Shown here: positions 6,076-45,562 of the stretch, piece by piece | Position numbering within the stretch: the first letter of the stretch is position 1 | How the letters are laid out: the number at the start of each line of letters is the position of its first letter | IMG/VR virus record: IMGVR_UViG_3300033994_001334 | Location: 1 to 64,000 of that record | From: a virus | Lineage: Duplodnaviria > Heunggongvirae > Uroviricota > Caudoviricetes | Reading direction: 5' to 3' (one strand) | Length of the DNA stretch: 64,000 nucleotides | Position numbers and translations under genes: made by a program | The notes under the pieces: generated by a model | The model's input: only the letters and a program-made list of their open reading frames with translations | Databases searched by the model: none | What the model was told of the DNA's origin: nothing

Positions 6076-6194
6076 TATTAAATATTGAGATTTTTCAAAA
6101 AAGATATATATTTATATTTATACACATAGGAAATCTTTGCCGAAATCCTTTCGTTTTTTAGTCCGTGGCGTTGAAACCACAAAATGACCTTAAT

Positions 6195-6221
6195 CCCCAA
6201 CCACTCGTTGGGGATTTTTTA
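6195..6221 (+). terminator. rho-independent terminator (CCCCAAC cactc GTTGGGG + T-run)
   Basis: Perfect 7-bp GC-rich stem followed by TTTTTT. Confidence 0.55.
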
Positions 6222-6251
6222 TTTCAAAAAATTTACGTATATTTGTAGAAT

Positions 6252-6425
6252 ATGAGAAAATACGCATACTTTCTTGCATTTGTTGCTATGATTACAATGA
6301 GTGCATGTGGTTCAAACGAATCGACCACAGAAACAGGAAAAACAGATTCAACATCAGTTTCTATTGACACTACGGTAGTTCCAGTTATGGAGTCTACAGA
6401 GGTGTCAACTGATTCTGTTAACTAG
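6252..6425 (+). CDS. small lipoprotein (MRKYAYFLAFVAMITMSAC…)
   Basis: 57-aa ORF, shorter than the track cutoff. Signal peptide plus lipobox-like MSAC. A TAtaTTTG −7 box lies at 6234-6241. Confidence 0.4.
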   Translation: MRKYAYFLAFVAMITMSACGSNESTTETGKTDSTSVSIDTTVVPVMESTEVSTDSVN

Positions 6426-6513
6426 TTTAATGAGTGCTCACTACTATTAGTGGTAATGTGAGTTAAATGTATTGATTGTGACACCACAGCTCGTTTTTTT
6501 ATTAAAAATAATT

Positions 6514-6933
6514 ATGGATATGATATATACAAAAGATTTAATACTATTAAGGGGAGTACCGGGTTCAGGTAAAACAACATTAGGTGAAGTTATCCTACAT
6601 ATGCCCAACAACCAACTAAAACCATTATCCGCCGATGATTACTTTATTGATGACTCAGGAAATTATAATTTTGATGCCTCAATTTTAAAAGAAGCACACA
6701 ATGACTGTCAACAAAGATGTTCTCATCTTATGCAGAACGATGTTATGAAAATTGTAGTTTCAAATACATTTACTCAGGAGTGGGAAATGAAACCATATTA
6801 TCAAATGGCCGAAAGATATGGTTATAGAGTACATAGTGTTATTGTTGAAAACAGACATGGTGGTATAAATGAACACAATGTACCAGAAGAAAAACTTTTA
6901 CAAATGAAAAACCGTTTTGAGGTAAAATTATAA
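6514..6933 (+). CDS. pnk: polynucleotide 5'-kinase-like P-loop kinase (kinase domain only)
   Basis: GVPGSGKTT Walker A. Layout LSADDYFID…VVSNTF…YGYRV parallels the T4 Pnk kinase domain (GCPGSGKST…RDDYR…ISDTNL…YGWKV). Start re-called at MDMIYTK. Confidence 0.55.
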   Translation: MDMIYTKDLILLRGVPGSGKTTLGEVILHMPNNQLKPLSADDYFIDDSGNYNFDASILKEAHNDCQQRCSHLMQNDVMKIVVSNTFTQEWEMKPYYQMAERYGYRVHSVIVENRHGGINEHNVPEEKLLQMKNRFEVKL

Positions 6934-6934
6934 A

Positions 6935-7978
6935 ATGATTGAGAAATTAGAACAATATCACAAAGATGGTTTGTTACAGAAACAAATCCACCCAACTCTT
7001 GACTTAACTATTTGGAATTATTCCCCAAAAGTTCAATACGAAAGATTGTGGGATGATATCACTATGCAATGTCGTGGATTGGTTACTAACAGTAAAGGTG
7101 AAATTGTTGCAAGACCATTCACTAAGTTTTTTAATTATGAAGAATTAACACCTGAAGAAATACCAAATGAATATTTTGATGTCTACGAAAAAATGGATGG
7201 TTCTTTGGGTATATTATTCAATTACCAAGGAGAGTGGGTATTATCAACAAGAGGTTCATTTACATCACCACAATCAATAGTTGGTTTTGAGATACTAAAA
7301 AAATATAAGTACAAATACCTTCCATCTGATTGTACATATCTTTTTGAAATAATTTATCCAGAAAACAGAATTGTTGTTGATTATGGTTCGGAAAAAAAAT
7401 TAGTTTTACTTGCCGTAATTCAAACCAACACAGGAGAGGAATATAATATCCACAATCAAGATTATGAATCGTTAGGTTTTAAAACAGTTACTATATATAA
7501 AACTTGGGGAGAGGGATATGATATACTAAAAAAAGAGATATCGAAAGATAAAGAAGGGTATGTAATTCGTTTTAAAAATGGTTTTCGTATGAAAATAAAA
7601 GGGGATGAGTATGTCCGTTTGCATCGAATATTGACCAACATATCTAACCGAGATATATGGGAGTATTTGAAAGATGGGAAACCTTTGGACGAGATACTTG
7701 ATAAAGTACCCGATGAATTTTATGATTGGGTTAAACAAACTAAAGAAGAGTTGTTAACTCAATTTGAAACATTAGATAAAGAATATCAATGGATATTCAA
7801 AATAATAAATAGGGTTCCGGGTATTGAAAATAGAGGTGTATTTGCATCATATGCGAAAATGTATAAGCACCCAAATTTATTATTTAACATGTTAGATGGT
7901 AAAGATTATTCAGAACAAATATGGAAATTACTATACCCACCGTACTCAAAACCATTTAATAAGAATGAAGAGAATTAG
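6935..7978 (+). CDS. rnlA: RNA ligase 1 (RnlA-like), ATP-dependent
   Basis: Motif I KMDGSL, matching T4 Rnl1 K99-EDGSL. 347 aa. 1-nt spacing from the kinase gene. Confidence 0.7.
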   Translation: MIEKLEQYHKDGLLQKQIHPTLDLTIWNYSPKVQYERLWDDITMQCRGLVTNSKGEIVARPFTKFFNYEELTPEEIPNEYFDVYEKMDGSLGILFNYQGEWVLSTRGSFTSPQSIVGFEILKKYKYKYLPSDCTYLFEIIYPENRIVVDYGSEKKLVLLAVIQTNTGEEYNIHNQDYESLGFKTVTIYKTWGEGYDILKKEISKDKEGYVIRFKNGFRMKIKGDEYVRLHRILTNISNRDIWEYLKDGKPLDEILDKVPDEFYDWVKQTKEELLTQFETLDKEYQWIFKIINRVPGIENRGVFASYAKMYKHPNLLFNMLDGKDYSEQIWKLLYPPYSKPFNKNEEN

Positions 7979-7994
7979 TAAAAAAAATTACACA

Positions 7995-8411
7995 ATGAAA
8001 AAAAGAATTTATTTGGATGACGTTAGAACCCCCATTTTAAAAGATGAATGGGTGATTGTTAGGAATTATGAAGAATTTGTAGATAAGATAACCGAAATAG
8101 GGTTAGAAAATATTGAATTGATTTCATTAGACCATGACTTAGGGGATAGTGCAATGAAAGAATGGCACAAAAATGTTTATCATAACTATACATTGAACTA
8201 TGATAATATTACCGAAAAGACGGGTATGGATTGCGTAAAATGGTTAGTTGAACAATGGATGGATGGTAAATCTGTTGTTGATGTTTTTGTACACTCAGCA
8301 AATGCTGTGGGTAGTGGAAATATGATGGGGTACATTAATAATTTTAGACACATCAATCACTTACCACAAAATTGTATTAGAGTTCAAATCGAACATACTG
8401 TTGAAAAATAA
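7995..8411 (+). CDS. hypothetical protein adjacent to the RNA-repair pair (…ISLDHDLGD…)
   Basis: In-frame ATG at 7995. The longer 7896 start overlaps rnlA. Confidence 0.4.
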   Translation: MKKRIYLDDVRTPILKDEWVIVRNYEEFVDKITEIGLENIELISLDHDLGDSAMKEWHKNVYHNYTLNYDNITEKTGMDCVKWLVEQWMDGKSVVDVFVHSANAVGSGNMMGYINNFRHINHLPQNCIRVQIEHTVEK

Positions 8412-8422: not shown

Positions 8423-8752
8423 ATGACAACAAAAAATAATGAAACCTCAATTAAAAAATTGAGTATTAAAGGAAAATATTCGGGATTTACAGATTTTTAC
8501 GATATCAATAAAGTTAAAATCTATAAGAACATAATAAATCTTTTTGGTAATCTTAAAAACAAAGAAAAAAATAATTTAATTTTGGTTTTATCGGCTAAAA
8601 TAATGGATTTAGATTGGGAAACGGAATTAAAATTTAATAGACAAGAAATTATAGTTCTAATTAGAGATTTAATACCATATTTTGAAAGTGTTGAAGATTA
8701 TGAAACCTGTGGAGAAATCCACAAACTATATCTAGAACTTTCTTCTATTTAG
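8423..8752 (+). CDS. hypothetical protein
   Basis: 109-aa ORF. Confidence 0.4.
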   Translation: MTTKNNETSIKKLSIKGKYSGFTDFYDINKVKIYKNIINLFGNLKNKEKNNLILVLSAKIMDLDWETELKFNRQEIIVLIRDLIPYFESVEDYETCGEIHKLYLELSSI

Positions 8753-11058
8753 TTTGATGATGACGATAAATCAACGTCACCTTTAACAATATATTTGATA
8801 TTCAATATCACCGAGCTTGTTGTGAAATTTATTACAAAAAACTCCACGGGGGTAAATGAATTAAAGTTTGAGATTGTCATAGAATTAAAATTTGATGCGG
8901 TGTACCAAAATACCTCATTATATGGGACTAATCCCGTTAAATTCGCACCAAGTAAATACGCGTCAGATATTGTTATCTTTCCGTCTTTGTTAATATCACC
9001 ACTCTTCATTCTTTGTCCACTTGTTAAAACTAAACCCGGACTTAATAAAGTTGGTACATTCTCGTTTTGAGATTCATTAAATACTAAATTAAAATCAGTA
9101 TTATTAACAACTCCCGTATATGTTGGAACTACTTTATATGTGGAATTATAAGTGGTCGGGTTTAATGTAAACGTTCCGGTTACACCAACGGTAACAGTTT
9201 GTAGAAGAGTCTCCGTAGTACCAACAACCAAATATAATTTAACCTGTGGTCTCGTAGATAGTCCAGATGGGATTGTAATTGTACCACTAATTGTTTCTGT
9301 TATAATTGACACCGTACCATTACTACTATACGCAAATCCACATGTACCACTTTGTAATTGTGCTCTGAATAATGTCTTTGAGGTAATATTAGTATAACTA
9401 TATGTTGATGCGGTATTTGTTATATCTATCCAATTGACACCGTCATTAGTTGACCTTTGCCATTTAACAATTGTACCACTATAACTACTTAATGTTAATG
9501 TACCTGAGTTTGTTGTACTTGTGTGAGTTGAGGATGACACACCACCACCAACAGGAGGTGTTCCCGATGTTACCGTAATTGTTTTTGAACTTGAGTTAAC
9601 CGCACTACCACAACTCGGTGTTTGTACCTCAACACGGTAGTAATATGTACCAGCCGAACTAATTGTTTCTGTTAAACTTGTTGTTGTGTTAGAGATATTA
9701 GTCCAATTCACATTGTCCGTTGAACGTTGCCATTTATTCACATTACCCTGTTGACCTGATAATGTTAATTCAACTTGACCACCCGCACATATAGAATTGT
9801 TTGCCGCAAATACTGTTCCCGATTTAGTTGGTTTTACGGTAACGTAAACACTTGAAGTTGCTAAACCTGAACAACTAACCGGACTTGATGAATTAACAAT
9901 TGCTCTGTAATATGTTGTTTTTGTTAAATTAGTTACCGTTATACTTGATGATGTACTCGAAATAGTAGTACCAGCAGTGAAAAAGTTATCAAAAGAAGAT
10001 TCCCATCTAACAACACTTCCAGTATAACTATTAAGAGTTAATGTTGTACTATTTGAACCCGAACAAACATTAATATTACCCCCACTAATAAACCCACTTG
10101 ATGCACCATTAATTTCTATGTTTCTTGTCAATATCGTTGTACTTGTTGTGATGTCTCCCGGCATGTCACCGTATTCACAAAGATAACCATTTAAGTTTGT
10201 ATTAGGTAAGTCATTCCATTGACCCGAATTTGCGGAATAAAATTGACCATAATGTTCACCACCCGAGTTGTTTGGTTCACCACCGGCCCATTTTGCATAT
10301 TGACCCGATACCGTGGTTGGACCTGAACCCCAATTACCATTTGAAAAGTTTGTTCCTTTTTCAGGTCCTGAAATCCAATGCCATTTACCTTCAACCGCCG
10401 ATTGATTAGTAAATGCCGTAGTTCCCTTGGCTGCGTTAACTAAACTTACTTCATCTGATGCACCAAACCAACAATCACTTGCCATCAAGCGCCAAACGAA
10501 ATTATTTTCGGCCTCAGAAGACATTGTTGCTAAATAACCGGCCCTACCAAAATAAGATTTAGTTTGGGCGGCAGTTACTGAATTTGTAAAAGTAATACTA
10601 CCTGAAACATATTCATAAAAGTGTTCCGTTAGAGGGTTATAGAATACAGTACCCGCAACAAATGTGATTCTTCTTTGTAATGCATAACAGGTAGATGTGG
10701 TTGACCTAAATTCAACCCCTCTTAGGATGGTTTCCCAATTTGATGCGGTGGTTGTACCATTAAAAACTAACACACCTGTGGTGTTATTAAATGTTGAAAC
10801 ACTAATACCCGAAGGTAATGTTGCGGTTGACCTTAATTGGTCACCGTTAGTACCACTTATATAACTCTGAGATATTTGAACTCTAAAACCTGTAATTGTT
10901 CCATTTGCGGTTAAAGTAACATTTGGGTCAACTTTTGTCCAAGTGTTGTGACTGACAGATAGTTTACCTGTACTTGATGTTCCAAGACTAACGGATGTTG
11001 ATTGTGAAAAACCTAAGACAGGTAATAATAAAAATAACACATATATTAGTTTTCTCAT
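8749..11058 (-). CDS. secreted C-type-lectin-domain protein with Ig-like/Cys-containing repeats and a dockerin-like Ca motif
   Basis: Signal peptide MRKLIYVLFLLLPVLGFSQ. C-type lectin core WHWISGPEKGT…WAGGEPNN…WNDLP…GYLCEY. Repeated …SCG/…TCGFAY modules. DINKDGKITISD. Confidence 0.6.
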   Translation of the reverse strand: MRKLIYVLFLLLPVLGFSQSTSVSLGTSSTGKLSVSHNTWTKVDPNVTLTANGTITGFRVQISQSYISGTNGDQLRSTATLPSGISVSTFNNTTGVLVFNGTTTASNWETILRGVEFRSTTSTCYALQRRITFVAGTVFYNPLTEHFYEYVSGSITFTNSVTAAQTKSYFGRAGYLATMSSEAENNFVWRLMASDCWFGASDEVSLVNAAKGTTAFTNQSAVEGKWHWISGPEKGTNFSNGNWGSGPTTVSGQYAKWAGGEPNNSGGEHYGQFYSANSGQWNDLPNTNLNGYLCEYGDMPGDITTSTTILTRNIEINGASSGFISGGNINVCSGSNSTTLTLNSYTGSVVRWESSFDNFFTAGTTISSTSSSITVTNLTKTTYYRAIVNSSSPVSCSGLATSSVYVTVKPTKSGTVFAANNSICAGGQVELTLSGQQGNVNKWQRSTDNVNWTNISNTTTSLTETISSAGTYYYRVEVQTPSCGSAVNSSSKTITVTSGTPPVGGGVSSSTHTSTTNSGTLTLSSYSGTIVKWQRSTNDGVNWIDITNTASTYSYTNITSKTLFRAQLQSGTCGFAYSSNGTVSIITETISGTITIPSGLSTRPQVKLYLVVGTTETLLQTVTVGVTGTFTLNPTTYNSTYKVVPTYTGVVNNTDFNLVFNESQNENVPTLLSPGLVLTSGQRMKSGDINKDGKITISDAYLLGANLTGLVPYNEVFWYTASNFNSMTISNFNSFTPVEFFVINFTTSSVILNIKYIVKGDVDLSSSSN

Positions 11059-12761
11059 AAATTTACTTTACTACCAATTAAAAAGAATGACAAAATTGGA
11101 AATTGAGGATTCGTACTCAAATTCGCTTTATAGTTTACATTTACTTTAAATCTTTTTGATACTTGATAATCAAAACCACTACCAATAAATCCACTAAAAT
11201 ATCTATCTGAAACGGTAACCTTTTCTTTTGTTGAATAAACTAATGGAGTTGATATTATATAAATTTCGGGAGATATTATTAATTTTTTATTTACTTTTAT
11301 TGGTCTTGTATAAAATGCCGTTATCGATGGTGAATAGTAACCACTTTTATCGGTTGCAATTACTGTTGCCGCCGCACTTACATTAAATCCGGTTATACCG
11401 TATTTTCCACCATTTAAAATCCCACTATAACCAACAAAACCTAAAAAATTACCGTATGTATAAACACCGGTTAAATTAACATTATGTACAAATTTTAATT
11501 TTTTACTTTTATTAAAGTGTATTTTGGTGTATCTCGCGGATAGTGCAAATTGTTCAAAATTTAACCATACCATACCCGTAACACCGTAACTTGATAGACC
11601 GGTCATAGATGACCTACTAGTTCCAACATTAATAATTGGGGTATATGATTTATTTAAATTTTGAGCGGATGTTATATCTGACGATACAATAATTGGATTA
11701 CTTCTAGCATTACCACCTGATTTACCGCTTTTACTACCTCCACTACCTGAAGTCCCACCCGAACCATTATCATTGTGTGCATCGTTGTTCATTGTTACGG
11801 TTGTTCCGACCTCTTCACCTTTTTGTGTTTTGGTGTCAGTTCCCGATGTTGTTCCCGAACCTCCATTATTACCGGAATTACCGGATGTGGAACTTCCACT
11901 TCCCGAACCCCCTGTAGAACCTGAACCACTAGAACCTCCGTTATTACCGGAATTACCGGATGAACCACTTCCACTTCCTGAACCTCCATTATTGCCGGAT
12001 GTGGAACTTCCACTTCCCGAACCCCCTGTAGAACCTGAACCACTAGAACCTCCGTTATTACCGGAACCGCCAGATGTACTACTTCCACTTCCTGAACCTA
12101 CAGGTGGCTGAGTCGTTGAACCTCCCCCTTGAGTTGAGTTACCTGAATTTGTAGACCCTCCACCATTTGTTGAAGTTCCACCTCCTTGTGAATTATTTGT
12201 TCCTCCATTTGGGTTACTAGTTCCTGAACTCGATTGGGATTCTCCTCCATTTTGATTTGAAGAAGAACCTGTCGAAGTCCCGTTAGTGTTATTTGAACCA
12301 TTACTTTTTTTCTTATTTGAATTATCATTATTACCCTTATCACCGGCATCATTACTACCAGAACTACTACTTGTTTCTGTATTTGTAGATTGGGGTTGAG
12401 AGGAAGACATAATACTACTAACAATAGATTGTACGGTATTACTAATAATTTGAGTTGTAATTTGATTTTGAGTTACCTGTCCTTGTTGTTGTGAACATGG
12501 TGATATTTTTCTAAAATCAGAATATGATTGGTTTATCCAATTAGCAAATGTGCCATTTGAAACATCGTTAGCATCAAAATTTCCGACTTTACCATAAAAA
12601 ATAATTGTTGTTTTTCCTGATTGTGTTGGTATACTAAATAGTGTAACTTCTTTAGTACATGGGTCAATAAAAGTATAAGTAATTATTTGGGCGTTAGCAT
12701 TTTGTCCGAATGACACGAAACATAAAACAAAAAAAATAATTCTAATTGACTTTAAAAACAT
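11055..12761 (-). CDS. outer-membrane beta-barrel-like protein with a long Ser/Gly/Asn-rich low-complexity linker
   Basis: Signal peptide …FGQNANAQ. About 300 aa of SGSGS/NNGG repeats. C-terminal ~230 aa of alternating hydrophobic beta-strand pattern. Confidence 0.5.
   Translation of the reverse strand: MFLKSIRIIFFVLCFVSFGQNANAQIITYTFIDPCTKEVTLFSIPTQSGKTTIIFYGKVGNFDANDVSNGTFANWINQSYSDFRKISPCSQQQGQVTQNQITTQIISNTVQSIVSSIMSSSQPQSTNTETSSSSGSNDAGDKGNNDNSNKKKSNGSNNTNGTSTGSSSNQNGGESQSSSGTSNPNGGTNNSQGGGTSTNGGGSTNSGNSTQGGGSTTQPPVGSGSGSSTSGGSGNNGGSSGSGSTGGSGSGSSTSGNNGGSGSGSGSSGNSGNNGGSSGSGSTGGSGSGSSTSGNSGNNGGSGTTSGTDTKTQKGEEVGTTVTMNNDAHNDNGSGGTSGSGGSKSGKSGGNARSNPIIVSSDITSAQNLNKSYTPIINVGTSRSSMTGLSSYGVTGMVWLNFEQFALSARYTKIHFNKSKKLKFVHNVNLTGVYTYGNFLGFVGYSGILNGGKYGITGFNVSAAATVIATDKSGYYSPSITAFYTRPIKVNKKLIISPEIYIISTPLVYSTKEKVTVSDRYFSGFIGSGFDYQVSKRFKVNVNYKANLSTNPQFPILSFFLIGSKVNL
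11795..12090. repeat. tandem ~66-bp repeats encoding (GSGSSTSGNSGNNGGSSGSGSTG)n
   Basis: Near-identical DNA units seen at 11.80-12.09 kb. They explain the spurious ORFs on both strands. Confidence 0.55.
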
Positions 12762-12780
12762 ATCAATAATAAATATTAAA

Positions 12781-12812
12781 AAGGGGGTTAATACCCCCTC
12801 TTTATTTTAAAA
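12781..12812. terminator. bidirectional hairpin (AAAGGGGGttaataCCCCCTCTTT)
   Basis: GC stem flanked by A- and T-runs, between convergent or adjacent genes. Confidence 0.4.
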
Positions 12813-12822
12813 AAAATTTTAT

Positions 12823-13602
12823 TTACTTGGGAAAAACTCCCTTTTTAATCATTCTAAGTAATATCCGACTACATGCTATATCTAAAGCTTTTTTAGTACT
12901 GATTCCGATAGTTGATTGGTTAAATTTAACCTCACTTAAATTATCGTCATTTATTAAACTTAGTTCTCTCACGGTCTTAGCTTCCCCTAATCCACTAGCC
13001 GCTATGATTTGACCCGTCTCCGCATCTGTAAATCTTATTTGAAGACCAAGTCTAGTGACCACGGTATTTTTAACACCGTTAGTCATATTAACAGTTTCAT
13101 CTTCACTTATTGAAAAATCATAAACTTCAATTGTAACAAAATAGTGCGCTAATCTAATTTTACCTCTACCGTCTAAAGTATCGGCCGATATTCCAGCTTG
13201 AGATGCTTGGAATTGTTTAACCATTCTGTTCTTAATCTCTGTTTTATCTTCAGTAAATGTGAATCTATTTAGGTTTTCTAAGTATTCTAACACAATGTTA
13301 GCAACACCTAGTCCAACCTTTTTTTCTTTTAATTCTGGATATTGTTCATATACCTCATCATTAATACCAATCTTTAAAATTTGTATTGGTATTTGTTTAC
13401 CATCGTAATTCATTAATGAATCAATATTAACACTAGTTTCAAAAGAAGCTTTATATTGTTCTGTTTGTGTTTTACCTATAGGTTGAGCATTTGCCGATAC
13501 CGATAGTAAAATCATAAATGTAACCCATAGTATGATTGTACCAATAATTATTGTGTACTCTTTTATTTTAGATGCGTTATTCATTGTCTTTAATTTTACC
13601 AC
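12823..13602 (-). CDS. CsgG/LpoB-like periplasmic protein
   Basis: N-terminal signal anchor. GLGVANIVLEYLENLNRFTFTEDKTEIKNRMVKQFQASQAGI resembles CsgG-family motifs. Weak call. Confidence 0.35.
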   Translation of the reverse strand: MVKLKTMNNASKIKEYTIIIGTIILWVTFMILLSVSANAQPIGKTQTEQYKASFETSVNIDSLMNYDGKQIPIQILKIGINDEVYEQYPELKEKKVGLGVANIVLEYLENLNRFTFTEDKTEIKNRMVKQFQASQAGISADTLDGRGKIRLAHYFVTIEVYDFSISEDETVNMTNGVKNTVVTRLGLQIRFTDAETGQIIAASGLGEAKTVRELSLINDDNLSEVKFNQSTIGISTKKALDIACSRILLRMIKKGVFPK

Positions 13603-14149
13603 ATTTTAAACATTCTAATTCACCGTCATTATCTTGGTCACCCCAAACATGTTCACATTGTCTATGTTCAAAATACTCATCAATTATACCGTCTCCGTCT
13701 GTATCATAACCGTCCATTGTTCCGTCTCCATCTTCATCAATTTCAACTTTTTTAATTTCGGTTGTTACCGAATCGGTTATTTGATTGTTTACATTTTCAA
13801 TTGGTAAAACAGACGGAGATGATGGTTTTGGAGAATCTGGAAAATCCGATGTACTAGACAAAGAAGTTCCGTCCTCTTCATCCATTTTTTGTACCAACAT
13901 TTTATCTTTATCGGTATCGCTAAACCAATAATCGATAATTTTACCATATGAACCAATAAATGCTCCTAATAATAACAAAAGTAATTCTTTCCATTCTCCT
14001 GCTATTTCAGATTTAGAAAATATAGCGAAGAACATCCCCCCTATGATAAACATAAATCCACCTAATACTAATGCAGTGATGTACCATCTTCTTTTCATCA
14101 TTGCATTTAACAATTCTTTAAACCCTGTTGGTGTTGTTTGATTACTCAT
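13577..14149 (-). CDS. membrane protein with Asp-rich Ca-binding (DxDxDG) repeats
   Basis: TM helix, then DEDGDGTMDGYDTDGDGIIDE and GDQDNDGELEC. Confidence 0.45.
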   Translation of the reverse strand: MSNQTTPTGFKELLNAMMKRRWYITALVLGGFMFIIGGMFFAIFSKSEIAGEWKELLLLLLGAFIGSYGKIIDYWFSDTDKDKMLVQKMDEEDGTSLSSTSDFPDSPKPSSPSVLPIENVNNQITDSVTTEIKKVEIDEDGDGTMDGYDTDGDGIIDEYFEHRQCEHVWGDQDNDGELECLKCGKIKDNE

Positions 14150-14172
14150 ATTTTTTTGTTTTTTTTAGTTTA

Positions 14173-14517
14173 TTACCATTTAGGTACTTCTTCTTTAAAT
14201 TCATCACCTTCTTTTTTCTTAGGTTTTGGTGATTCACTTTTTGCTGGTACTTCTTTTTCAATAACTCTTTCTTTAATTATTGTATTTGTACCACCACCGT
14301 TTGATTGTTGACTAGCATTACTGTTAGTAATATTAATAACAGGTGCCACTTGTTGTGTTGGAGCACTTTCTTTTACTTCCTCACCACCATTAAAAAAGGT
14401 AGTGGTTAACCAACCACCACCAGCCAAAATGGCCGTTGATAATGTTCCGATTAATGTTTTCTTTAATCCTGACCAAGTTCCATCATTGGTTTCAGGTGCG
14501 TTTGTTTCTTCACTCAT
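14173..14517 (-). CDS. hypothetical membrane protein
   Basis: 114-aa ORF with one TM segment. Confidence 0.4.
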   Translation of the reverse strand: MSEETNAPETNDGTWSGLKKTLIGTLSTAILAGGGWLTTTFFNGGEEVKESAPTQQVAPVINITNSNASQQSNGGGTNTIIKERVIEKEVPAKSESPKPKKKEGDEFKEEVPKW

Positions 14518-14521
14518 AGTT

Positions 14522-16420
14522 TTAGACTTTTACGAATTGTTTTGTTATTTGTTTTTGTTTATTGTTTAGTATCAAGAAATAATTACCATTATCTGATGCT
14601 GTCATATCGATTTGTTTGTACGAAACATTTGTCATACCGTTACCCGATATCTCACCTACAGTTTTAATTAATCTTCCTTGTGTATCATAAATACTTGCAA
14701 ATACAGACATATTTACGTCTGGAAACTTAACTTCAACTTCAAACCAACCGGTTGTTGGATTTGGTCTAATTAATGCGGTGATTTCTGTAATATCTAAACC
14801 AGAATTTGGTGACATTTTAAACATTAATGTTGTAACTTGACTTGTTAAAGCAATGTTATAATGGTCACCATTATTATCCGAAGCGTCCATTAATTTTCTT
14901 ACATATATGTTAGTCACAACATCGTTAGTACCGATAGGTGAGAATTTAAGTTTGAATGGTGTTGATGAACCAATAAGTGCTCCGCTAGTTTGGTTATTCA
15001 TACCACCAAATCTAACAGTACCATTTTGTTCATCATGAGTTACATATTGTAACCATGGGGTTTCTCCAAAATTAGATACGATTTCTTCAAATTTAACTTT
15101 TGTGTTATCGTATTTCATTTCAAATTGTAATCCATAAGCCATGTCACCATTTGTATTCACATTAAATGGAACATAAAGAGGTTGACCTGTTGGTGCATTT
15201 AGATTAGGAATAGTAACATCAAATTTACCTTTATAAATTGCTCTTACTATTGGACTACCAAACGCATCTAAAACTGGAGATGAATATGTTCTATCAACGT
15301 CACCTAATATATAATATTTGATATCTACGTTAATATTCGAAGTACCGACACTATCGTAAATGTAATTATTTCCGTTTACGTGGTTTGCCCATAGTGACCA
15401 TTGATTTGTACTTAAAACAAGTGAATCATAATCAGATTTACTCATTGCGTTAATTACAAAAGACGTATCTATTTTCTTTAAACCTGAAACCGATGCATAT
15501 ATTGAATATGGGTCACCACCATCAAGTTTTCCGTTTTTATTTATGTCACCAATTAAATACGATAAACCAAATTTTAAATATGAACGACTAAATGATTGGT
15601 TTACGTCTGTTTGAGTGTACTCATCATAAGTTTTTACCGCATCTGATATTGTAACGGCATAATCTCTAATTTGAGCCAAACTATCTGTTGGGAATCTAAG
15701 TTCAAGTTTATATTTTGTATTTTTATCTACATTAATTAATGTATAGTTACCTGTAGCGTCACATTGTGCTTCTGAAATAAATGCTCCCGTTGATGCTTTA
15801 GTACAGATAACTTTTGGTAATATGGTCATTGAAGGACCCAACCAAACTTTACCTGATATCACTAAGTTACCCATTAATTCGATGTGCATCTTTTGGTAAT
15901 CTAATGTTGCCACATTATCACCGATTGTTGTACCATCAAGCTTAAACATTCTAGCCCAGTTTACTGTGATACTGTCTGCCGCAAAATTTGGTACAACATT
16001 GTTAATGATAAATTTATTGTGGACGATATATCCATTAGTTGTTATTTTAGAACCACTCGAAAGAACTAAGTAATTTCTACCTACAGTCCAATTAGTATCT
16101 GAAGTGTAATTATAAATTCCCGTTGATGAATTATAAGAATCGTATTTGTAGTTATCGAATTTTTTAAACGATACAGCAGGTGTCATTGTACTAATACCGG
16201 CATCCACAGTTGTAGACAAATAACTGAACAATTGTTTCTTAAATTGAAAATCAATTTGAAACGTTCTAATGTCTTTAGATGTGTCTGGTTTATAGTAATA
16301 AGCGACATCTAATGTGTCACCTCTTCTTACGGTTGACATTTGTTGGAAGTGTCCAATTCCTTGAGCGAAAACACCTGCGGACATAAATGCAGATGTGATT
16401 AAAATTAGGATTTTTTTCAT
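14522..16420 (-). CDS. secreted protein with a T9SS C-terminal sorting domain
   Basis: Signal peptide MKKILILITSAFMSAGVFAQ. C-terminus …GNYFLILNNKQKQITKQFVKV is typical of type-A Por_Secre_tail. Confidence 0.6.
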   Translation of the reverse strand: MKKILILITSAFMSAGVFAQGIGHFQQMSTVRRGDTLDVAYYYKPDTSKDIRTFQIDFQFKKQLFSYLSTTVDAGISTMTPAVSFKKFDNYKYDSYNSSTGIYNYTSDTNWTVGRNYLVLSSGSKITTNGYIVHNKFIINNVVPNFAADSITVNWARMFKLDGTTIGDNVATLDYQKMHIELMGNLVISGKVWLGPSMTILPKVICTKASTGAFISEAQCDATGNYTLINVDKNTKYKLELRFPTDSLAQIRDYAVTISDAVKTYDEYTQTDVNQSFSRSYLKFGLSYLIGDINKNGKLDGGDPYSIYASVSGLKKIDTSFVINAMSKSDYDSLVLSTNQWSLWANHVNGNNYIYDSVGTSNINVDIKYYILGDVDRTYSSPVLDAFGSPIVRAIYKGKFDVTIPNLNAPTGQPLYVPFNVNTNGDMAYGLQFEMKYDNTKVKFEEIVSNFGETPWLQYVTHDEQNGTVRFGGMNNQTSGALIGSSTPFKLKFSPIGTNDVVTNIYVRKLMDASDNNGDHYNIALTSQVTTLMFKMSPNSGLDITEITALIRPNPTTGWFEVEVKFPDVNMSVFASIYDTQGRLIKTVGEISGNGMTNVSYKQIDMTASDNGNYFLILNNKQKQITKQFVKV

Positions 16421-16917
16421 AGTAAATTATTGATTAGGGTTATTATTGTTTTCTTTATTGCGGAACTTGCCGACTCCTGATTAAATTTACCACCCTCATC
16501 AATAATAATAGTTGATGTTGAGATTTCGGTTGATTTACCTTCAGAAAATTCCTGTTTTATTTTTTTATTTCCTTTATATAGGATACCTTTCATTCTAATA
16601 ACAGTTGTACTCTTATCTTCATGAAAAATACTAAATCCGGAATTGGTGTTAACGATATCAAAAAATATTAATTCTACTCTAATTGAATAATCAGACATAT
16701 CCTTTGAACCGACCAATATGAAACTATCTTGTTCGTTAATGATTTCTTGAACCATATTTTTTACCCCGAAAGCAAGATTTTTATTTCCAGATAAAGAACC
16801 TATTTGGATATTATTGATAACGGTATCTACATATATTTTTGGATTGGTTTGTGCATTCGAATTGACACAAACAATAAAAAATAGTGCAAAGACTAAAAGA
16901 CCTTTGAATTTTTTCAC
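16417..16917 (-). CDS. secreted protein or lipoprotein, hypothetical
   Basis: Signal peptide …FFIVCVNSNAQ. 4-nt overlap with the upstream gene. Confidence 0.45.
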   Translation of the reverse strand: MKKFKGLLVFALFFIVCVNSNAQTNPKIYVDTVINNIQIGSLSGNKNLAFGVKNMVQEIINEQDSFILVGSKDMSDYSIRVELIFFDIVNTNSGFSIFHEDKSTTVIRMKGILYKGNKKIKQEFSEGKSTEISTSTIIIDEGGKFNQESASSAIKKTIITLINNLL

Positions 16918-16944
16918 GGTACGAGTATGTAAAAAGTAGATTGA

Positions 16945-17196
16945 TTATCCTTCTAAAGAATCGTCTTTCTTTTTATGTGAGAACTTATCCAAAGTATCTG
17001 CACCCATACCGATTGCTGTGATAATCATTACGGCGTTCACCAAGTCAGGTGAAGGTTTAATGTCACCATGTGTAAATGAGTTAATCATCATGGTTGAACA
17101 TAGAAATAATGCTCCTAAGAAAGCAATTACTGGTTTGATTGATGTTGAACCTCTCTCGTCTTTAAAAAGGTCAACTATCCAATTTTTAAAATTCAT
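16945..17196 (-). CDS. small membrane protein
   Basis: 83 aa with two hydrophobic helices. Confidence 0.4.
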   Translation of the reverse strand: MNFKNWIVDLFKDERGSTSIKPVIAFLGALFLCSTMMINSFTHGDIKPSPDLVNAVMIITAIGMGADTLDKFSHKKKDDSLEG

Positions 17197-17463: not shown

Positions 17464-17504
17464 ACATATAAAAAACCTCGGGATTGTATCTCGAGGTTTT
17501 TTTG
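17464..17504 (+). terminator. hairpin CCTCGgg…tcTCGAGG + T7
   Basis: Stem plus TTTTTTT immediately before the first tRNA. Confidence 0.45.
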
Positions 17505-17509: not shown

Positions 17510-17582
17510 GGGCTGATGGTATAGATGGCTAACACATGACATTTGCAATGTCAAGTCCCGAGTTCGAGGCTCGGTCGGTCCA
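17510..17582 (+). tRNA. tRNA-Ala(TGC)-like, G3:U70 present, D-arm weak
   Basis: Acceptor GGGCTGA/TCGGTCC. Anticodon stem TGACA/TGTCA with loop TTTGCAA. T-arm CCGAG-TTCGAGG-CTCGG. Confidence 0.5.
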
Positions 17583-17587
17583 CAAAC

Positions 17588-17661
17588 GGGATAAAAGCAC
17601 ATTAGGATGTGCAACCACTAGACGGTGGGAGGTATGGGTTCGAATCCCAAATATTCCACCA
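17588..17661 (+). tRNA. tRNA-like with atypical anticodon arm (4-bp CCAC/GTGG stem, 6-nt loop); encodes CCA
   Basis: Acceptor GGGATAA/ATATTCC. D-arm GCAC…GTGC. T-arm TGGG-TTCGAAT-CCCA. No canonical 5+7+5 anticodon arm. Confidence 0.3.
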
Positions 17662-17690
17662 AAGTGTTCTTTGACATATTGGTTTAACAC

Positions 17691-17763
17691 GGTGCGGTAG
17701 CTCAGTTGGTAGAGCACAGGACTGAAAATCCTGGTGTCGGCAGTTCGATTCTGCCCCGCACCA
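17691..17763 (+). tRNA. tRNA-Phe(GAA)
   Basis: GGTGCGG…CCGCACC. Anticodon stem CAGGA/TCCTG, loop CTGAAAA. Confidence 0.85.
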
Positions 17764-17768
17764 CATAT

Positions 17769-17842
17769 GACTTCGTAGCTCAGTTGGTTAGAGCACATCA
17801 CTTTTAATGATGGGGTCGACAGTTCGAATCTGTCCGGGGTCA
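17769..17842 (+). tRNA. tRNA-Lys(TTT)
   Basis: Anticodon stem CATCA/TGATG, loop CTTTTAA. T-arm GACAG-TTCGAAT-CTGTC. Confidence 0.85.
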
Positions 17843-18093
17843 CTTTAAAATTTAAATAACATGAAAAAAGAACAATCGCTGGACGCAATGTAGGCCGTTA
17901 TCGGAGGCTAAAAGAAATATCTGATAAAATTGGAACTAAACATCAAAGAAAACTTAAAAAATTTTCAGATGGGTTCAAAGAGAAATTCAATTTCTTTTTT
18001 AAAGTTAGAAAATCTGGTTTAATTGATTTTTGTGGTGAAAAAATTGAGGTTGAATTTAATGTAAATGGTCCTTGTGGTAGAGAATGTTTTAGA

Positions 18094-18363
18094 ATGTTCG
18101 AAGACGGTCAATTTAGTAAAGGAAAAAACAAAATTGAAACACGTCATCCAAACATTGTTAAAACGGTCATTCAAGGAAAAAAAGGATGGGGTCTTTGGGT
18201 AAATGAATGGTCCGAAGGAATATCCGAAGGTTCATTTACCAAACATGAAATTCTAAATGAATTTGAAATTCGAAACATAAAAATACCGGAATCGTTTAAA
18301 GAAGATTTTGAAAATAGAATTTGGAAAAAAAGAATTAATTATTTTAATAAAAATAAGATATAA
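18094..18363 (+). CDS. hypothetical small protein between tRNA islands
   Basis: 89-aa ORF. The frame is open upstream to 17860 with no ATG. Confidence 0.35.
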   Translation: MFEDGQFSKGKNKIETRHPNIVKTVIQGKKGWGLWVNEWSEGISEGSFTKHEILNEFEIRNIKIPESFKEDFENRIWKKRINYFNKNKI

Positions 18364-18369
18364 ATTCAT

Positions 18370-18443
18370 AGTTTCTTAGCTCAGTTGGTTAGAGCATCTG
18401 GTTTACATCCAGAGGGTCGTAGGTTCGAATCCTACAGGGACTA
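18370..18443 (+). tRNA. tRNA-Val(TAC)
   Basis: Loop TTTACAT. T-arm GTAGG-TTCGAAT-CCTAC. Confidence 0.85.
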
Positions 18444-18452
18444 CTAATATAC

Positions 18453-18523
18453 ACGGGTGTGGTGCAATGGTAGCATACGGGTCTCCAAAACCTTTGATGG
18501 GAGTTCGAATCTCTCCACCCGTG
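18453..18523 (+). tRNA. tRNA-Trp(CCA)
   Basis: Acceptor ACGGGTG/CACCCGT. Loop CTCCAAA. Confidence 0.7.
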
Positions 18524-18528
18524 CTAAT

Positions 18529-18600
18529 GGTTTCTTTGTGTAACGGAGAGCACGTAACGCTACGGACGTTAAAGTAAGGGTTCGAATCCTTTAGGAACTA
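18529..18600 (+). tRNA. tRNA-Arg(ACG)
   Basis: Anticodon stem TAACG/CGTTA, loop CTACGGA. Confidence 0.8.
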
Positions 18601-18607
18601 CAAATAA

Positions 18608-18677
18608 GGTCAGTTTGGTCGTGGAGGCCAGTTAGTCTGCAAAACTAACGGAGTTGGTTCGATTCCAACATTGACCT
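18608..18677 (+). tRNA. tRNA-Cys(GCA)
   Basis: Anticodon stem (G)TTAGT/ACTAA(C), loop CTGCAAA. T-arm GTTGG-TTCGATT-CCAAC. Confidence 0.75.
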
Positions 18678-18686
18678 CAAATACAT

Positions 18687-18764
18687 GGTGGACGTAGCTT
18701 AGTTGGTTAGAGCACCTGATTGTGGTTCAGGAGGTCATGAGTTCGATTCTCATCGTTCACACCA
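18687..18764 (+). tRNA. tRNA-His(GTG) with encoded G-1 and CCA
   Basis: Loop TTGTGGT. Extra 5' G before GTGGACG. Confidence 0.85.
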
Positions 18765-18767
18765 AAT

Positions 18768-18844
18768 TGGAATGTAGCTCAGTTGGTTAGAGCATCTCGC
18801 TGATACCGAGAAGGTCGATGGTTCGAGTCCATCCATTCCAACCA
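18768..18844 (+). tRNA. tRNA-Ile(GAT), CCA encoded
   Basis: TGGAATG…CATTCCA. Loop CTGATAC. Confidence 0.85.
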
Positions 18845-18849
18845 AACAT

Positions 18850-18921
18850 TGCGGGGTAGAGCAGTGGTAGCTCAACGGGCTCATAACCCGTAGGTCGTGG
18901 GTTCGACTCCCACCCCCGCAA
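18850..18921 (+). tRNA. tRNA-Met(CAT), initiator-like (GGG/CCC in anticodon stem)
   Basis: Anticodon stem ACGGG/CCCGT, loop CTCATAA. Confidence 0.75.
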
Positions 18922-18995
18922 CAAATTTTTAAAAAACATTTTATAATTCAAGATTTCTTTTGTATATTTGAAGTGTTCTTTGATTTAAAATACAT

Positions 18996-19068
18996 AGCGA
19001 GATAGTAGCAGCGGTAGCTCGCCAGGCTCATAACCTGGAGGTCGGGGGTTCGATTCCCTCTCTCGCAA
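18996..19068 (+). tRNA. tRNA-(CAT) second copy with 1:72 A:A mismatch (fMet-like or Ile-LAU)
   Basis: Acceptor aGCGAGA/TCTCGCa. Loop CTCATAA. 3-bp D-stem. Confidence 0.6.
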
Positions 19069-19077
19069 CAAAAATAA

Positions 19078-19151
19078 GCCTCCTTAGCTCAGTTGGCCAG
19101 AGCAACGCACTTGTAATGCGTGGGTCGGCGGTTCGAATCCGTCAGGAGGCT
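19078..19151 (+). tRNA. tRNA-Thr(TGT)
   Basis: GCCTCCT…AGGAGGC. Loop CTTGTAA. Confidence 0.85.
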
Positions 19152-19156
19152 CAATT

Positions 19157-19228
19157 GGTCTCATAGTTAATCGGCTATAATATTGCCCTGTCACGGCAAA
19201 GTGCCGGGTTCGATTCCCGGTGGGACCG
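19157..19228 (+). tRNA. tRNA-Asp(GTC)
   Basis: Anticodon stem TTGCC/GGCAA, loop CTGTCAC. Confidence 0.8.
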
Positions 19229-19450
19229 CAATGAGTAAGAGATACTCAATAGATTTGGTGCCGTTTCTTAACAAAGGTATAGTTGTCGCTTTCCACAACT
19301 TTAAAGAGGGGGTCGTCGGAGTATGGTCGTAACAAATCCACCGAGTATGTTTGATTTATGGTTTCATGTGGTAAGACACTAATGTGTTTGTTTTTAATAA
19401 AACTAAACCGTTAAAATCTACTTATCTGTAATCTCAGGGTAGGGAAAATT

Positions 19451-19541
<91 letters not shown>

Positions 19542-19584
19542 ACAATTATTGTTCTTTGACAAATTTAAAAACAACTTTAAAATT

Positions 19585-19890
19585 ATGGAAACATTATCAT
19601 TTATTTTAGGGGTGTCTTCTGTGGTTGGTATTGTAATTTCAATACTGGCTGTGGTTGGATACGTCAAGGTAGGAAAAGTGGAAAAGAACTTGGAATCTTT
19701 TCAAAATAATATATCCAATGAATTGGATAACATAAGAAAAGAAATCTACGATTTAATTAATCATAATCATGATGAGGTAAATCGAAGGATTGATAACACA
19801 GAAAGAGAAATCTTTTCCCAATTAGACTCTCGATTAGATAAATTGGAAAACAAAATAAAAAATGGTCAAAAGGAAGTTTTAAACTCCTAA
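19585..19890 (+). CDS. membrane-anchored coiled-coil protein (start re-called at METLSF…)
   Basis: TM helix, then a heptad-like region. The longer track ORF starts inside tRNA-Ser. Confidence 0.45.
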   Translation: METLSFILGVSSVVGIVISILAVVGYVKVGKVEKNLESFQNNISNELDNIRKEIYDLINHNHDEVNRRIDNTEREIFSQLDSRLDKLENKIKNGQKEVLNS

Positions 19891-19926
19891 GACATAACTA
19901 AAGTTGAAGAACAATAATTGTTAAAT

Positions 19927-19998
19927 GGCCCTATCGTCTATCGGTTAGGACATCAGGTTTTCATCCTGAAAAGTCGGGTTCGACTCCCGGTGGGGCTA
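19927..19998 (+). tRNA. tRNA-Glu(TTC)
   Basis: Anticodon stem TCAGG/CCTGA, loop TTTTCAT. D-stem GTCT/GGAC. Confidence 0.75.
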
Positions 19999-20019
19999 CA
20001 AAATTTTAAATAAACCAGT

Positions 20020-20262
20020 ATGTTAGATAGAATAATAGAACAGTATCAAGATGAAGAAATCTTGATTGCAGACGGATTCGATGATGCCGTAATCGGAATT
20101 GATGAGAAATCAATGAGATTAATTTATTCAGTTGAGAAGTGTATTGAAATCCTAATGAAACAGGGGATGGATATGACTGAAGCGATTGAATACTTTGAAT
20201 ATAATGTATCCGGTTCATATGTCGGAGAAAAAACACCAATATGGTGTGAAGATTTATTTTAA
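20020..20262 (+). CDS. hypothetical acidic small protein
   Basis: 80-aa ORF. Confidence 0.4.
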   Translation: MLDRIIEQYQDEEILIADGFDDAVIGIDEKSMRLIYSVEKCIEILMKQGMDMTEAIEYFEYNVSGSYVGEKTPIWCEDLF

Positions 20263-20370
20263 AAAAATTAACATTTTATGTTACCTTATTGTTAAAGGGA
20301 TTTATTGATGTGTTTTTATTATTATATTATAATATCTATGGGTAATAATAAATAAACTAAAACACTTAAC

Positions 20371-20931
20371 ATGAAAAAAATCCTATTCTTTTTTGTTGTC
20401 TTAATTCCAATGATAACAAAATCACAGTCTTTCACATTTAAACCTCTTGTTGACCAAAACATATCTTGTTACGGTAACAATGATGGGTCAGTACAATTGA
20501 ATGCTGAACCCGCATCTAATTACAAATATACCATATCAAGATTAACCTTTAAGGATACTAATTCTTCAGGTATATTTGGAAACTTAAAACCAGGTGTCTA
20601 TAAAGTTTGTGCAACAAATAATAAAATAACACAATGTTCAAAGTTAACAATAACAGAACCAAAAAAATTATCAATTAAATTTGCGGTCGATAAATACCCA
20701 ACAACAAAAGACCCTATGGGTACAGTTGTGATTGATGTTCTTGGTGGTGTATCGGTACTTCAACCTATTTTAACAACTTGGATTAATAGTAAAGGTGTAC
20801 AAATGAATGATGTAAACAATAATTTTGCCACTTATATGGAGAATATGCCCGCAGACACATATACCGTTAAACTTGAAGATGATAACGGTTGTTTTCTCAC
20901 TAAATCATTTAAATTAATAAAAAAGAAATAA
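20371..20931 (+). CDS. secreted protein with an SprB-repeat-like motif
   Basis: Signal peptide MKKILFFFVVLIPMITKSQ. CYGNNDGSVQL resembles the SprB C.G.NDG repeat. Confidence 0.5.
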   Translation: MKKILFFFVVLIPMITKSQSFTFKPLVDQNISCYGNNDGSVQLNAEPASNYKYTISRLTFKDTNSSGIFGNLKPGVYKVCATNNKITQCSKLTITEPKKLSIKFAVDKYPTTKDPMGTVVIDVLGGVSVLQPILTTWINSKGVQMNDVNNNFATYMENMPADTYTVKLEDDNGCFLTKSFKLIKKK

Positions 20932-20959
20932 AATAAACAAAACAAAAAAAACAAAAATT

Positions 20960-21321: not shown

Positions 21322-21351
21322 CCCGGACTCCAAAAAAGTTCGGGTTTTTTT
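21322..21351 (+). terminator. CCCGGACT ccaaaaa AGTTCGGG + T7
   Basis: 8-bp stem (one G:U) plus T-run. Confidence 0.5.
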
Positions 21352-45559: not shown

Positions 45560-45562
45560 ATA

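Follow-up and report, generated by a model that had tools for sequence, protein, structure and literature searches.

A cassette of eight genes was characterized on a 64,000-nt stretch of phage DNA (positions 1 to 64,000 of the IMG/VR virus record IMGVR_UViG_3300033994_001334, Caudoviricetes), which is called the window throughout. The cassette is situated at 8749–17196, and it is tentatively proposed that its products assemble in the envelope into a phage-specified complex by which a lectin is displayed on the infected Bacteroidota cell, and that this complex would most likely mask receptors and block superinfection. The location of the products in the cell envelope is well supported; it is the function of the cassette that we infer.

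All coordinates refer to the window, and the eight open reading frames (ORFs) were named g1 to g8 in the order of transcription, which is on the minus strand throughout. In the initial annotation of this region seven co-directional genes had been counted. The common direction was verified, and the number had to be raised to eight. The genes are tightly packed, with intergenic distances of -26 to +61 nt and with 4-nt overlaps between the stop codon of g2 and the start codon of g3 as well as between g7 and g8. These eight phage genes form an operon-like set.

The cargo protein g3 and the lectin protein g8

The gene g3 (14522–16420) encodes a protein of 632 amino acids (aa), in which a signal peptide (MKKILILITSAFMSAGVFA|Q) is followed by an N-domain, a beta-sandwich, a dockerin-like module, a cohesin and a type-A C-terminal sorting domain of type IX secretion systems (T9SS). 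The sorting domain (about aa 552–631, 14531–14764) stops 1–2 residues short of the stop codon, and it was recognized by two models above their curated cut-offs, namely Pfam PF18962 (Por_Secre_tail, 31.1 bits, cut-off 27) and NCBIfam TIGR04183 (30.8 bits, cut-off 23). The sorting-domain model was matched by 19 of the 26 members of the g3 family, and PF18962 was found in almost all of 54 database homologues of the C-terminal half of g3. Judged by the curated hidden Markov model (HMM) thresholds g3 is a bona fide type-A T9SS cargo, as had been proposed in the initial annotation, and because it bears this domain the host T9SS is its predicted route to the cell surface.

The cohesin (aa 402–500, 14921–15217) had been missed in the initial annotation, together with the dockerin-like module and the wide conservation of the cassette. 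The window copy clears the gathering score of Pfam PF00963 by a small margin (25.7 vs. 24.1 bits), and the same model matched 9 of the 26 family members, with a best E value of 5.3e-9. The N-domain of g3 was considered as a second cohesin, and this was not supported (hhalign, 2.9%). The identical g3 protein is encoded on at least nine metagenomic contigs from several samples. On these contigs independent gene callers gave the same ORFs as in the window, except that the start of g6 was placed six codons later, yielding a protein of 253 aa.

The last gene of the cassette, g8 (8749–11058, 769 aa), encodes a signal peptide, an N-domain, a C-type lectin domain (10159–10623), three immunoglobulin (Ig)-like repeats of about 85 aa each (9319–10122), a beta-sandwich and a C-terminal dockerin-like module (8752–9036). 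With Lectin_C (PF00059) the window copy reached 18.7 bits and stayed under the cut-off of 22.6 bits, but 25 of the 29 members of the g8 family were matched (best E value 1.9e-15), and the residues EPN (aa 261–263), E268 and WND (aa 281–283) were found to be nearly invariant, which substantiated the earlier lectin assignment. Each of the residues W257, G260, E261, P262, N263, E268, W281, N282 and D283 is conserved in at least 90% of the family, and the region of the Ca/sugar site reads GGEPNNSGGEHYGQFYSANSGQWNDLPN. C-type lectins of the EPN type prefer mannose/glucose-type sugars, and the conservation of EPN, E and WND thus argues for g8 being a working lectin with a probable preference for mannose/glucose-type sugars. 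The Ig-like repeats were delimited by explicit alignment and are 31–39% identical to one another; a self-BLAST of g8 did not return repeats at E < 1e-3. In some relatives the repeat region matches a CHU_C-associated Ig-like family, and other relatives have gained PA14 or SdrD_B domains. A T9SS sorting domain is missing from g8 itself.

The dockerin-like module connects the two proteins. A comparison of the g3 module (aa 278–380, 15281–15589) with the last approximately 95 residues of g8 yielded an hhalign probability of 99.2% (E 7.6e-20) over 97 columns. When a joint profile of both modules was searched against all PDB sequences, 23 matches were obtained, at least 20 of which were dockerins or dockerin-bearing cellulases, with a best E value of 3.1e-5. 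The remainder of the module, an extension of about 60 aa that ends in a conserved GDVNLSHSS, has no known relative. The Pfam model Dockerin_1 matched 5 of the 29 g8 family members at E < 0.01.

Envelope targeting and the membrane proteins of the cassette

The initial annotation had assigned signal peptides to all genes of the cassette. Cleavable signal peptides were found in five of the eight products (g2, g3, g6, g7 and g8), with a basic n-region, a hydrophobic core and a small-x-small|Q cleavage motif, and the remaining three are transmembrane (TM) proteins that lack a cleavage site. The motif followed the hydrophobic region in 33 of 33 distinct N-termini of g3, 40 of 41 of g6, 9 of 9 of g8 and 29 of 38 of g2; in the window the cleavage sites of g2 and g7 read SNA|Q and ANA|Q, respectively. 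A glutamine at position +1 is a habit of signal peptidase I substrates in Bacteroidota. The five products are predicted to reach the periplasm via Sec and signal peptidase I.

Of all cassette genes g6 (12823–13602, 259 aa) is the best conserved, and it encodes a secreted protein of the CsgG superfamily that lacks a lipobox. Its description as CsgG-like in the initial annotation held at the level of the fold and not as a direct HMM match. At E <= 0.1 neither a Pfam nor an NCBIfam model matched g6 directly, CsgG (PF03783) included. Remote homologues that were retrieved by the g6 profile at E values of 1e-11 to 1e-16 do pass the CsgG cut-off of 20.8 bits, namely P0376 with 24.0 bits, P0340 with 24.8 bits and P0380 with 45.8 bits, and the structural model of g6 has a CsgG-type alpha/beta fold like that of CsgG, LptE and PelC. 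The mature protein starts with the glutamine after ANA or ASA, and none of 17 aligned members has a cysteine at the cleavage site. The model contains a long hairpin (aa 154–193) whose tip is polar and in which just a short stretch is amphipathic, and a clear pair of membrane-spanning hairpins is not apparent in it. Curli-like genes (csgE, csgF, csgA, csgB) were not detected in the cassette by Pfam and PHROG scans. Four remote homologues of g6 (P0349, P0360, P0370 and P0380) are fusion proteins; in three of them a g6/CsgG-like region at the N-terminus is joined to a caspase (Peptidase_C14) at the C-terminus, and in one a Ser/Thr kinase precedes a C-terminal CsgG domain.

A smaller CsgG/LptE-type relative of g6 may be encoded by g2 (16417–16917, 166 aa). 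The two families aligned with an hhalign probability of 64.6% (E 6.3e-5), which concerns the GxGVxNxxxExL helix only. Searches of PDB sequences with the profiles of g6 and g2 gave chance-level matches only.

The predicted outer-membrane protein is g7 (11055–12761, 568 aa). It is composed of a signal peptide, a domain of about 60 aa between the conserved residues Cys35 and Cys89, a linker rich in Ser, Gly, Asn and Thr, and a C-terminal part (11058–11693) that was modelled as a closed antiparallel barrel of about 12 amphipathic strands. Together with the signal peptide this model is that of an outer-membrane beta-barrel, and the pair of outer-membrane protein and CsgG-like protein proposed in the initial annotation can be regarded as real at the fold level; it may serve export or anchoring, as was suggested there. 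Pfam did not yield a match to g7 at E <= 0.1, and hence none to PorP/SprF. The linker contains two tandem copies of a 114-bp unit with 93% matches (11877–12099), and its length ranges from 0 to 295 aa among homologues, so that the length of the tether appears to evolve fast.

The products of g1, g4 and g5 are predicted to be inner-membrane proteins. The small protein g1 (16945–17196, 83 aa) has two predicted TM helices and a charged C-terminus; none of eight distinct N-termini contains a cleavage site, and matches in Pfam, PHROG and PADLOC were not obtained. One TM helix is present in g4 (14173–14517, 114 aa), followed by a low-complexity tail rich in Lys, Glu and Pro with a conserved terminal Trp. 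In g5 (13577–14149, 190 aa) two TM helices precede a C-terminal tail with a net charge of -23, which carries DxDGDG motifs and a CxH...CxxC motif and is shortened in some relatives (locus L055: 116 aa). The positive-inside rule predicts that this acidic tail is cytoplasmic, which makes calcium binding doubtful; from the earlier designation as a Ca-binding membrane protein, the acidic membrane protein with DxDGDG motifs was retained.

Two structures that might influence transcription were noted. Between g6 and g7 (12777–12804, minus strand) a GC-rich hairpin precedes a T-run, and this is a putative internal terminator or attenuator. At 17470–17502 a bidirectional terminator-like hairpin with a 15-bp stem divides the cassette from a divergent array of 25 tRNA genes (17510–23505) that adjoins it. 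A scan for sigma-70 promoters gave 40 sites vs. 44.5 expected from shuffled sequence, with a consensus that is unsuited to Bacteroidota.

Distribution, variation and phage context

A query of IMG/VR with g6 yielded 493 matching stretches, and g6 alone was found in 6204 protein clusters. The best 80 of the 493 stretches are on contigs of up to 321 kb and are 75–95% identical to g6. For the comparison 81 loci were fetched. By BLAST, g6 was present in all 81 loci, g5 in 76, g4 in 74, g2 in 71, g7 and g8 in 69 each, g3 in 66 and g1 in 19, the homologues of g1 having identities of 70–96%. The gene order g2-g3-g4-g5-g6-g7-g8 is found in most of the 81 loci. The retention of this order in about 80 viral contigs together with the tight packing suggests that the eight genes are kept as one unit.

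The cassette was then searched for in phage and cellular genomes. A megablast of the region against 50,697 GenBank phage records gave no nucleotide match. At the protein level the same records contained matches in only three isolates of the Flavobacterium phage vB_FspM_immuto (hereafter immuto), a cultured lytic phage of 160 kb with the host Flavobacterium sp. LMO8, which is the sole cultured relative. Among 185,579 bacterial and archaeal species, represented by one genome each, two real matches were found, and both are phage-like contigs from metagenome bins: L083 (254 kb) carries the cassette, and L082 (2.7 kb) has a match to g6 only. Two weak 'homologues' in Amphritea were rejected, as they are due to the peptide YEQYPELKEW shared with an unrelated lipoprotein. 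The viral contexts and the near-absence from cellular genomes indicate that the cassette is a phage feature, rather than a host operon that was captured and still has relatives among living cells.

In immuto the same families occur in a rotated order, starting with the lectin gp13, followed by gp14, the cohesin protein gp15, gp16, which corresponds to g4 (55% identity in the N-terminal 55 aa), gp17, which corresponds to g6 (57% identity), gp18, which corresponds to g7, and gp19, which is homologous to g2 (E 3.7e-7). The labels given to them are no more than 'lectin C-type domain', 'cohesin domain' or 'hypothetical'. A single g3 corresponds to two immuto proteins: gp14 contains the N-domain and the dockerin-like module and is devoid of a sorting domain, and gp15 contains the cohesin and the sorting domain. 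In L083 both parts are fused again in a protein of 642 aa. Because the two halves are separate in immuto and fused in the window and in L083, it is likely that they act together in the same compartment.

Some relatives, e.g., the loci L055 and L065, contain a second type of cassette. In this type a g1 homologue lies between g5 and g6, and several kb of unrelated genes separate g6 from g7. After the lectin gene two small lipoproteins of 113–123 aa with a lipobox cysteine are encoded (L065 7824–8545, L055 8181–8893); one of them has a weak match to DUF3244, and their C-termini look like sorting-domain ends by eye. The interval between the g6 and g7 homologues in L055 (10718–16351) encodes a class-3 lipase, an 827-aa TonB-dependent-receptor-like protein with CarboxypepD_reg, Plug and barrel domains, and a 398-aa lipoprotein. 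The corresponding insert in L065 encodes a GT2 protein and a calcineurin-like phosphoesterase. In these relatives the g6–g7 region acts as an island for envelope genes.

The degrees of divergence within the cassette were compared using distance matrices and Spearman correlations of 28 distinct cassettes. A conserved core comprises g6, g5 and the g7 barrel, with mean p-distances of 0.17, 0.23 and 0.27, respectively, g5 being second only to g6. The values were 0.40 for the lectin domain of g8, 0.41 for g4, 0.44 for g2, and 0.49 for both the N-domain of g8 and the sorting domain of g3. The N-domain and the lectin domain of g8 correlate strongly with one another (rho 0.85), vs. values of 0.34–0.66 for everything else, and the C-terminal part of g8 tracks g7 and the N-domain of g3 (rho 0.71–0.77). 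The lectin head appears to be exchanged independently. That the head and the C-terminus of g8 follow different partners is reminiscent of tail fibres, in which a conserved attachment domain carries a binding head that can be exchanged.

The remainder of the window also holds PHROG-type phage genes, and a cellular housekeeping context was not found. On the plus strand at 4063–8411 a ClpB-like double-AAA+ protein of 670 aa is followed by a tRNA-repair-like trio, which consists of an AAA_33 kinase, an RNA ligase of the T4 Rnl1 type and a cREC_REC cyclic-phosphate-processing receiver domain. Beside the tRNA array an RNaseH-like ORF (23465–23992) precedes a gene for a homologue of SmpB, the partner of transfer-messenger RNA (23992–24417, plus strand; Pfam SmpB, E 3.4e-42); a transfer-messenger RNA gene was not detected within the window by ARAGORN. 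A 627-aa SPFH/Band-7 protein of a PHROG 'lipoprotein' family is encoded at 24482–26365 on the plus strand. A DNA/RNA non-specific endonuclease gene on the minus strand (53809–54420) resembles the signal-peptide-bearing endonuclease G gene just upstream of the immuto cassette. A glycan-modification cluster was identified at 39199–51240 on the minus strand. It encodes a 1031-aa fusion of an FkbM methyltransferase with HtrL_YibB and GT2, a 902-aa NodU/CmcH-like carbamoyltransferase, two glycosyltransferases of phrog_24687 and further methyltransferases. The presence of this cluster suggests that the phage also alters the surface polysaccharide of its host.

Proposed function, rival explanations and significance

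According to the preferred reading, in which the cassette builds a receptor-masking lectin coat, g3 would be carried out by the host T9SS and be retained at the surface. The dockerin-like modules might fasten g8 and further copies of g3 to the g3 scaffold or to a g7/g6 core, so that the assembly would resemble a cellulosome that is anchored by a T9SS domain in place of an SLH domain. The lectin protein g8 could reach the surface bound to g3 or via the g6/g7 pair. An outer-membrane platform, possibly including the route for g8, would be formed by g6, g2 and g7, and g1, g4 and g5 would tie it to the inner membrane. The conserved core of g5, g6 and the g7 barrel would then represent the platform, and the recombining lectin head would be the specificity element. 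A cellulosome-style assembly seems to be the most economical reading of the T9SS-anchored cohesin, the occurrence of the module on lectin and scaffold, and the fission of g3 into gp14 and gp15. The targets of the lectin coat would be the glycans of the host surface, or surface structures dependent on the T9SS, that phages use as receptors; by binding them the coat would block superinfection and would also keep progeny from adsorbing to infected cells and debris. According to two sources (10.1101/2020.10.02.323337; PMC9804748), phage resistance of Flavobacterium commonly maps to gliding-motility and T9SS genes, and it is this mapping that makes T9SS-dependent surface structures plausible receptors. 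Receptor masking is favoured because of the resistance mapping, the variable lectin head, which would fit strain-specific glycans, and the glycan-modifying enzymes of the phage. The host-surface manipulation or superinfection exclusion suggested in the initial annotation is plausible.

Several observations speak against this proposal. The module shared by g3 and g8 is termed 'dockerin-like' and not dockerin, because a single loop–helix repeat was recognized in it and because the window copy of g8 reached only 19 bits with Pfam Dockerin_1, below the cut-off of 22.9 bits. The match to PDB dockerins spans one Ca-loop and helix only (D[VI]NxDGxxxxxDAYL, profile positions of about 28–65), and the two duplicated Ca-binding loop–helix segments that define dockerins were not found in the g8/g3 module. 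Between the dockerin-like module of g8 and the cohesin of g3 the correlation was rho 0.52, which is lower than with the N-domain of g3 and both parts of g7 (0.71–0.72), and the distance-matrix test did not reveal a specific signal for cohesin and g8 module. The architecture of the cassette is not fixed, since the second cassette type differs in anchor, cohesin and lipoproteins: in its g3 homologue the sorting domain was undetected, and its lectin protein, which is encoded directly after g3, has a C-terminal cohesin match that is borderline (23.9 vs. 24.1 bits). The lipoproteins of this type might replace the T9SS anchor missing from g3. Furthermore, the export route of g8 is a gap in the proposal, and the roles of g1, g2, g4 and g5 are not explained by it. 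A PADLOC scan of the cassette was empty apart from one chance-level match and gave no defence or exclusion model. The host, presumably a Flavobacterium-type member of the Bacteroidota, is itself a prediction.

A serious rival, although on balance unlikely, is that the same surface complex serves adhesion or resource capture and attaches the cell to particles, to glycans of algal or other origin, or to cells nearby. Nutrients or new hosts would thereby be brought within reach while a long latent period lasts, and the complex would be the viral equivalent of lectin adhesins secreted by the T9SS and of systems for polysaccharide capture. An intact EPN/WND site of the mannose/glucose type on an extended stalk of Ig-like repeats would suit such a role. 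Cohesin–dockerin systems classically organize polysaccharide-binding machinery, the PA14, SdrD_B and CHU_C-associated Ig domains of the relatives are typical of adhesins, and one related phage has the TonB-dependent-receptor-like protein, the lipoprotein and the lipase within the region. However, a catalytic carbohydrate-active domain was found in none of the cassette proteins, and glycans that differ between host strains would account equally well or better for the fast turnover of the lectin head. The sequence does not separate the binding of self-glycans from that of foreign glycans, and nothing in it distinguishes exclusion from adhesion. Quite unlikely, but of a wider scope, is a self-contained trans-envelope display apparatus, in which the inner-membrane proteins, a CsgG-like ring of g6 with g2 and the g7 barrel would make up a phage-encoded platform for export or anchoring. 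In concert with the host T9SS this platform would build a cellulosome-like lattice of g3 with exchangeable lectin heads, altering adhesion, aggregation and recognition by other phages. Somewhat more doubtful is a division of the cassette, with g6 and g7, together with g2, and with g1, g4 and g5 constituting a separate unit beside g3 and g8, which would act as an outer-membrane channel or exporter of the LptD-LptE or PelB-PelC pattern or as a permeability device. The modelled folds of g6, which is like CsgG, LptE and PelC, and of the g7 barrel are compatible with this division, as are the hairpin and T-run between g6 and g7, the variant cassettes with kilobases of unrelated genes between g7 and g6 and with g8 beside g3, and the far higher conservation of the core genes than of g3 and g8. 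Nevertheless, about 80 contigs and immuto keep all genes together in one region, g7 correlates with the C-terminal part of g8 (rho 0.71) and shares a 4-nt overlap with g8 in the window, and g6 lacks both a lipobox and clear membrane-spanning hairpins.

A lysis module for egress was considered very unlikely. In this case g1 and g5 would act as holin or antiholin, g4 would resemble an inner-membrane spanin, and g2, g6 and g7 would breach the outer membrane. The topology of g1 and g5 is indeed holin-like, g4 has one TM helix and a periplasmic tail, and inner- and outer-membrane proteins are combined in one set. Yet an endolysin was found neither in or beside the cassette nor among the approximately 48 ORFs of the window that were scanned, and the glucosaminidase gene of immuto is about 9 kb away from its cassette. 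No cassette protein has the lipobox of an outer-membrane spanin, g4 is devoid of a coiled coil, PHROG lysis families were not matched, and lysis has no use for a T9SS cargo, a cohesin or a lectin. It is hardly credible that the products are virion components for decoration or receptor binding, or that the cassette is host DNA or an assembly artefact. Lectin and Ig-like domains do occur on phage particles, and g2 has a weak match to a PHROG 'portal protein' family (E 0.0022). In crAss-like phages beta-sandwiches similar to sorting domains are encoded beside head and tail genes (PMC6949934). However, the cleavable signal peptides, the outer-membrane barrel and the extreme C-terminal position of the sorting domain argue for export, in agreement with the envelope targeting put forward in the initial annotation, and the neighbours are tRNA-repair genes and the tRNA array instead of structural genes. 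An origin from host DNA or an artefact is contradicted by the presence of the cassette in a lytic phage that has been cultured and on viral contigs that number in the hundreds, as against just two phage-like contigs of the cellular reference set; the identical g3 on at least nine independent contigs also speaks against an artefact.

The receptor-masking coat can be compared with several known systems. Cellulosome scaffoldins share with g3 and g8 the principle of a surface-anchored cohesin protein and a partner with a dockerin-type segment of Ca-loop and helix. They have an SLH or sortase anchor and enzymes as cargo, whereas the cassette, which is viral and belongs to a Gram-negative host, combines a T9SS anchor with a lectin cargo and a one-repeat module, the pairing being a prediction. 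The curli channel CsgG has the alpha/beta fold in common with g6, as part of a CsgG/LptE/PelC/LpoB/TraT-like fold group; in contrast to g6, which is cleaved by signal peptidase I according to prediction and lacks both a lipobox and neighbours similar to csgE, csgF, csgA or csgB, it is a lipoprotein with curli partner genes. RemA and SprB are T9SS-delivered surface adhesins of Flavobacterium johnsoniae, and barrel partners of the SprF/PorP family are encoded next to such cargo. RemA, by which cells bind to one another and to polysaccharides, contains a lectin domain. Its lectin is of the SUEL type, unlike the C-type lectin of g8, which is viral and has no sorting domain of its own. Llp of phage T5, Cor and TraT of the F plasmid are small single surface-exclusion lipoproteins that act on a protein receptor, in contrast to the multi-protein cassette with its glycan-binding head, and a sequence relationship to them was not found.

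Sorting-domain proteins of type A have been described before in phages of Bacteroidota, in two cases and in silico. The 'Cryophage' of 76 kb encodes an enzyme and a PA14 protein as T9SS cargo, which was called a unique occurrence there (Bellas et al. 2020, PMC7468147). A hijack of host secretion was proposed for this cargo, which is highly variable between phage variants, and superinfection exclusion was suggested (PMC7468147). In crAss-like phages, T9SS sorting-domain ORFs lie near head and tail genes (PMC6949934). In these cases single cargo genes or ORFs are concerned, whereas g3 is a non-enzymatic cohesin scaffold within a conserved set of eight genes, and the Cryophage is unrelated. A full-text literature search gave nothing relevant on cohesin or dockerin in phages of Bacteroidota, and a description of such a multi-component cassette was not found. 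The principle that a phage hijacks the T9SS is already known; a conserved multi-layer cassette with cohesin/dockerin-like wiring is new.

Lytic phages are usually thought to change the surface of their host by single proteins, e.g., exclusion lipoproteins or O-antigen modifiers. The cassette differs in scale, as it comprises eight conserved genes with proteins for every envelope layer, and the large aquatic Bacteroidota phages that carry it form a widespread lineage; its compact, highly conserved and unannotated g6 family merits a name. A cultured system for testing is at hand with phage immuto on Flavobacterium sp. LMO8. If the preferred reading is true, a cohesin/dockerin-type assembly would be attributed to a virus for the first time, and the cassette would be a concrete, testable case of T9SS hijacking. 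A trans-envelope display apparatus, if that reading were true, would represent a new class of viral 'extended phenotype' machinery that is common in large aquatic Bacteroidota phages. With a receptor-masking lectin coat, infected Flavobacteria would change their stickiness or their susceptibility to other phages, which would bear on particle colonization and carbon turnover in lakes and seas.

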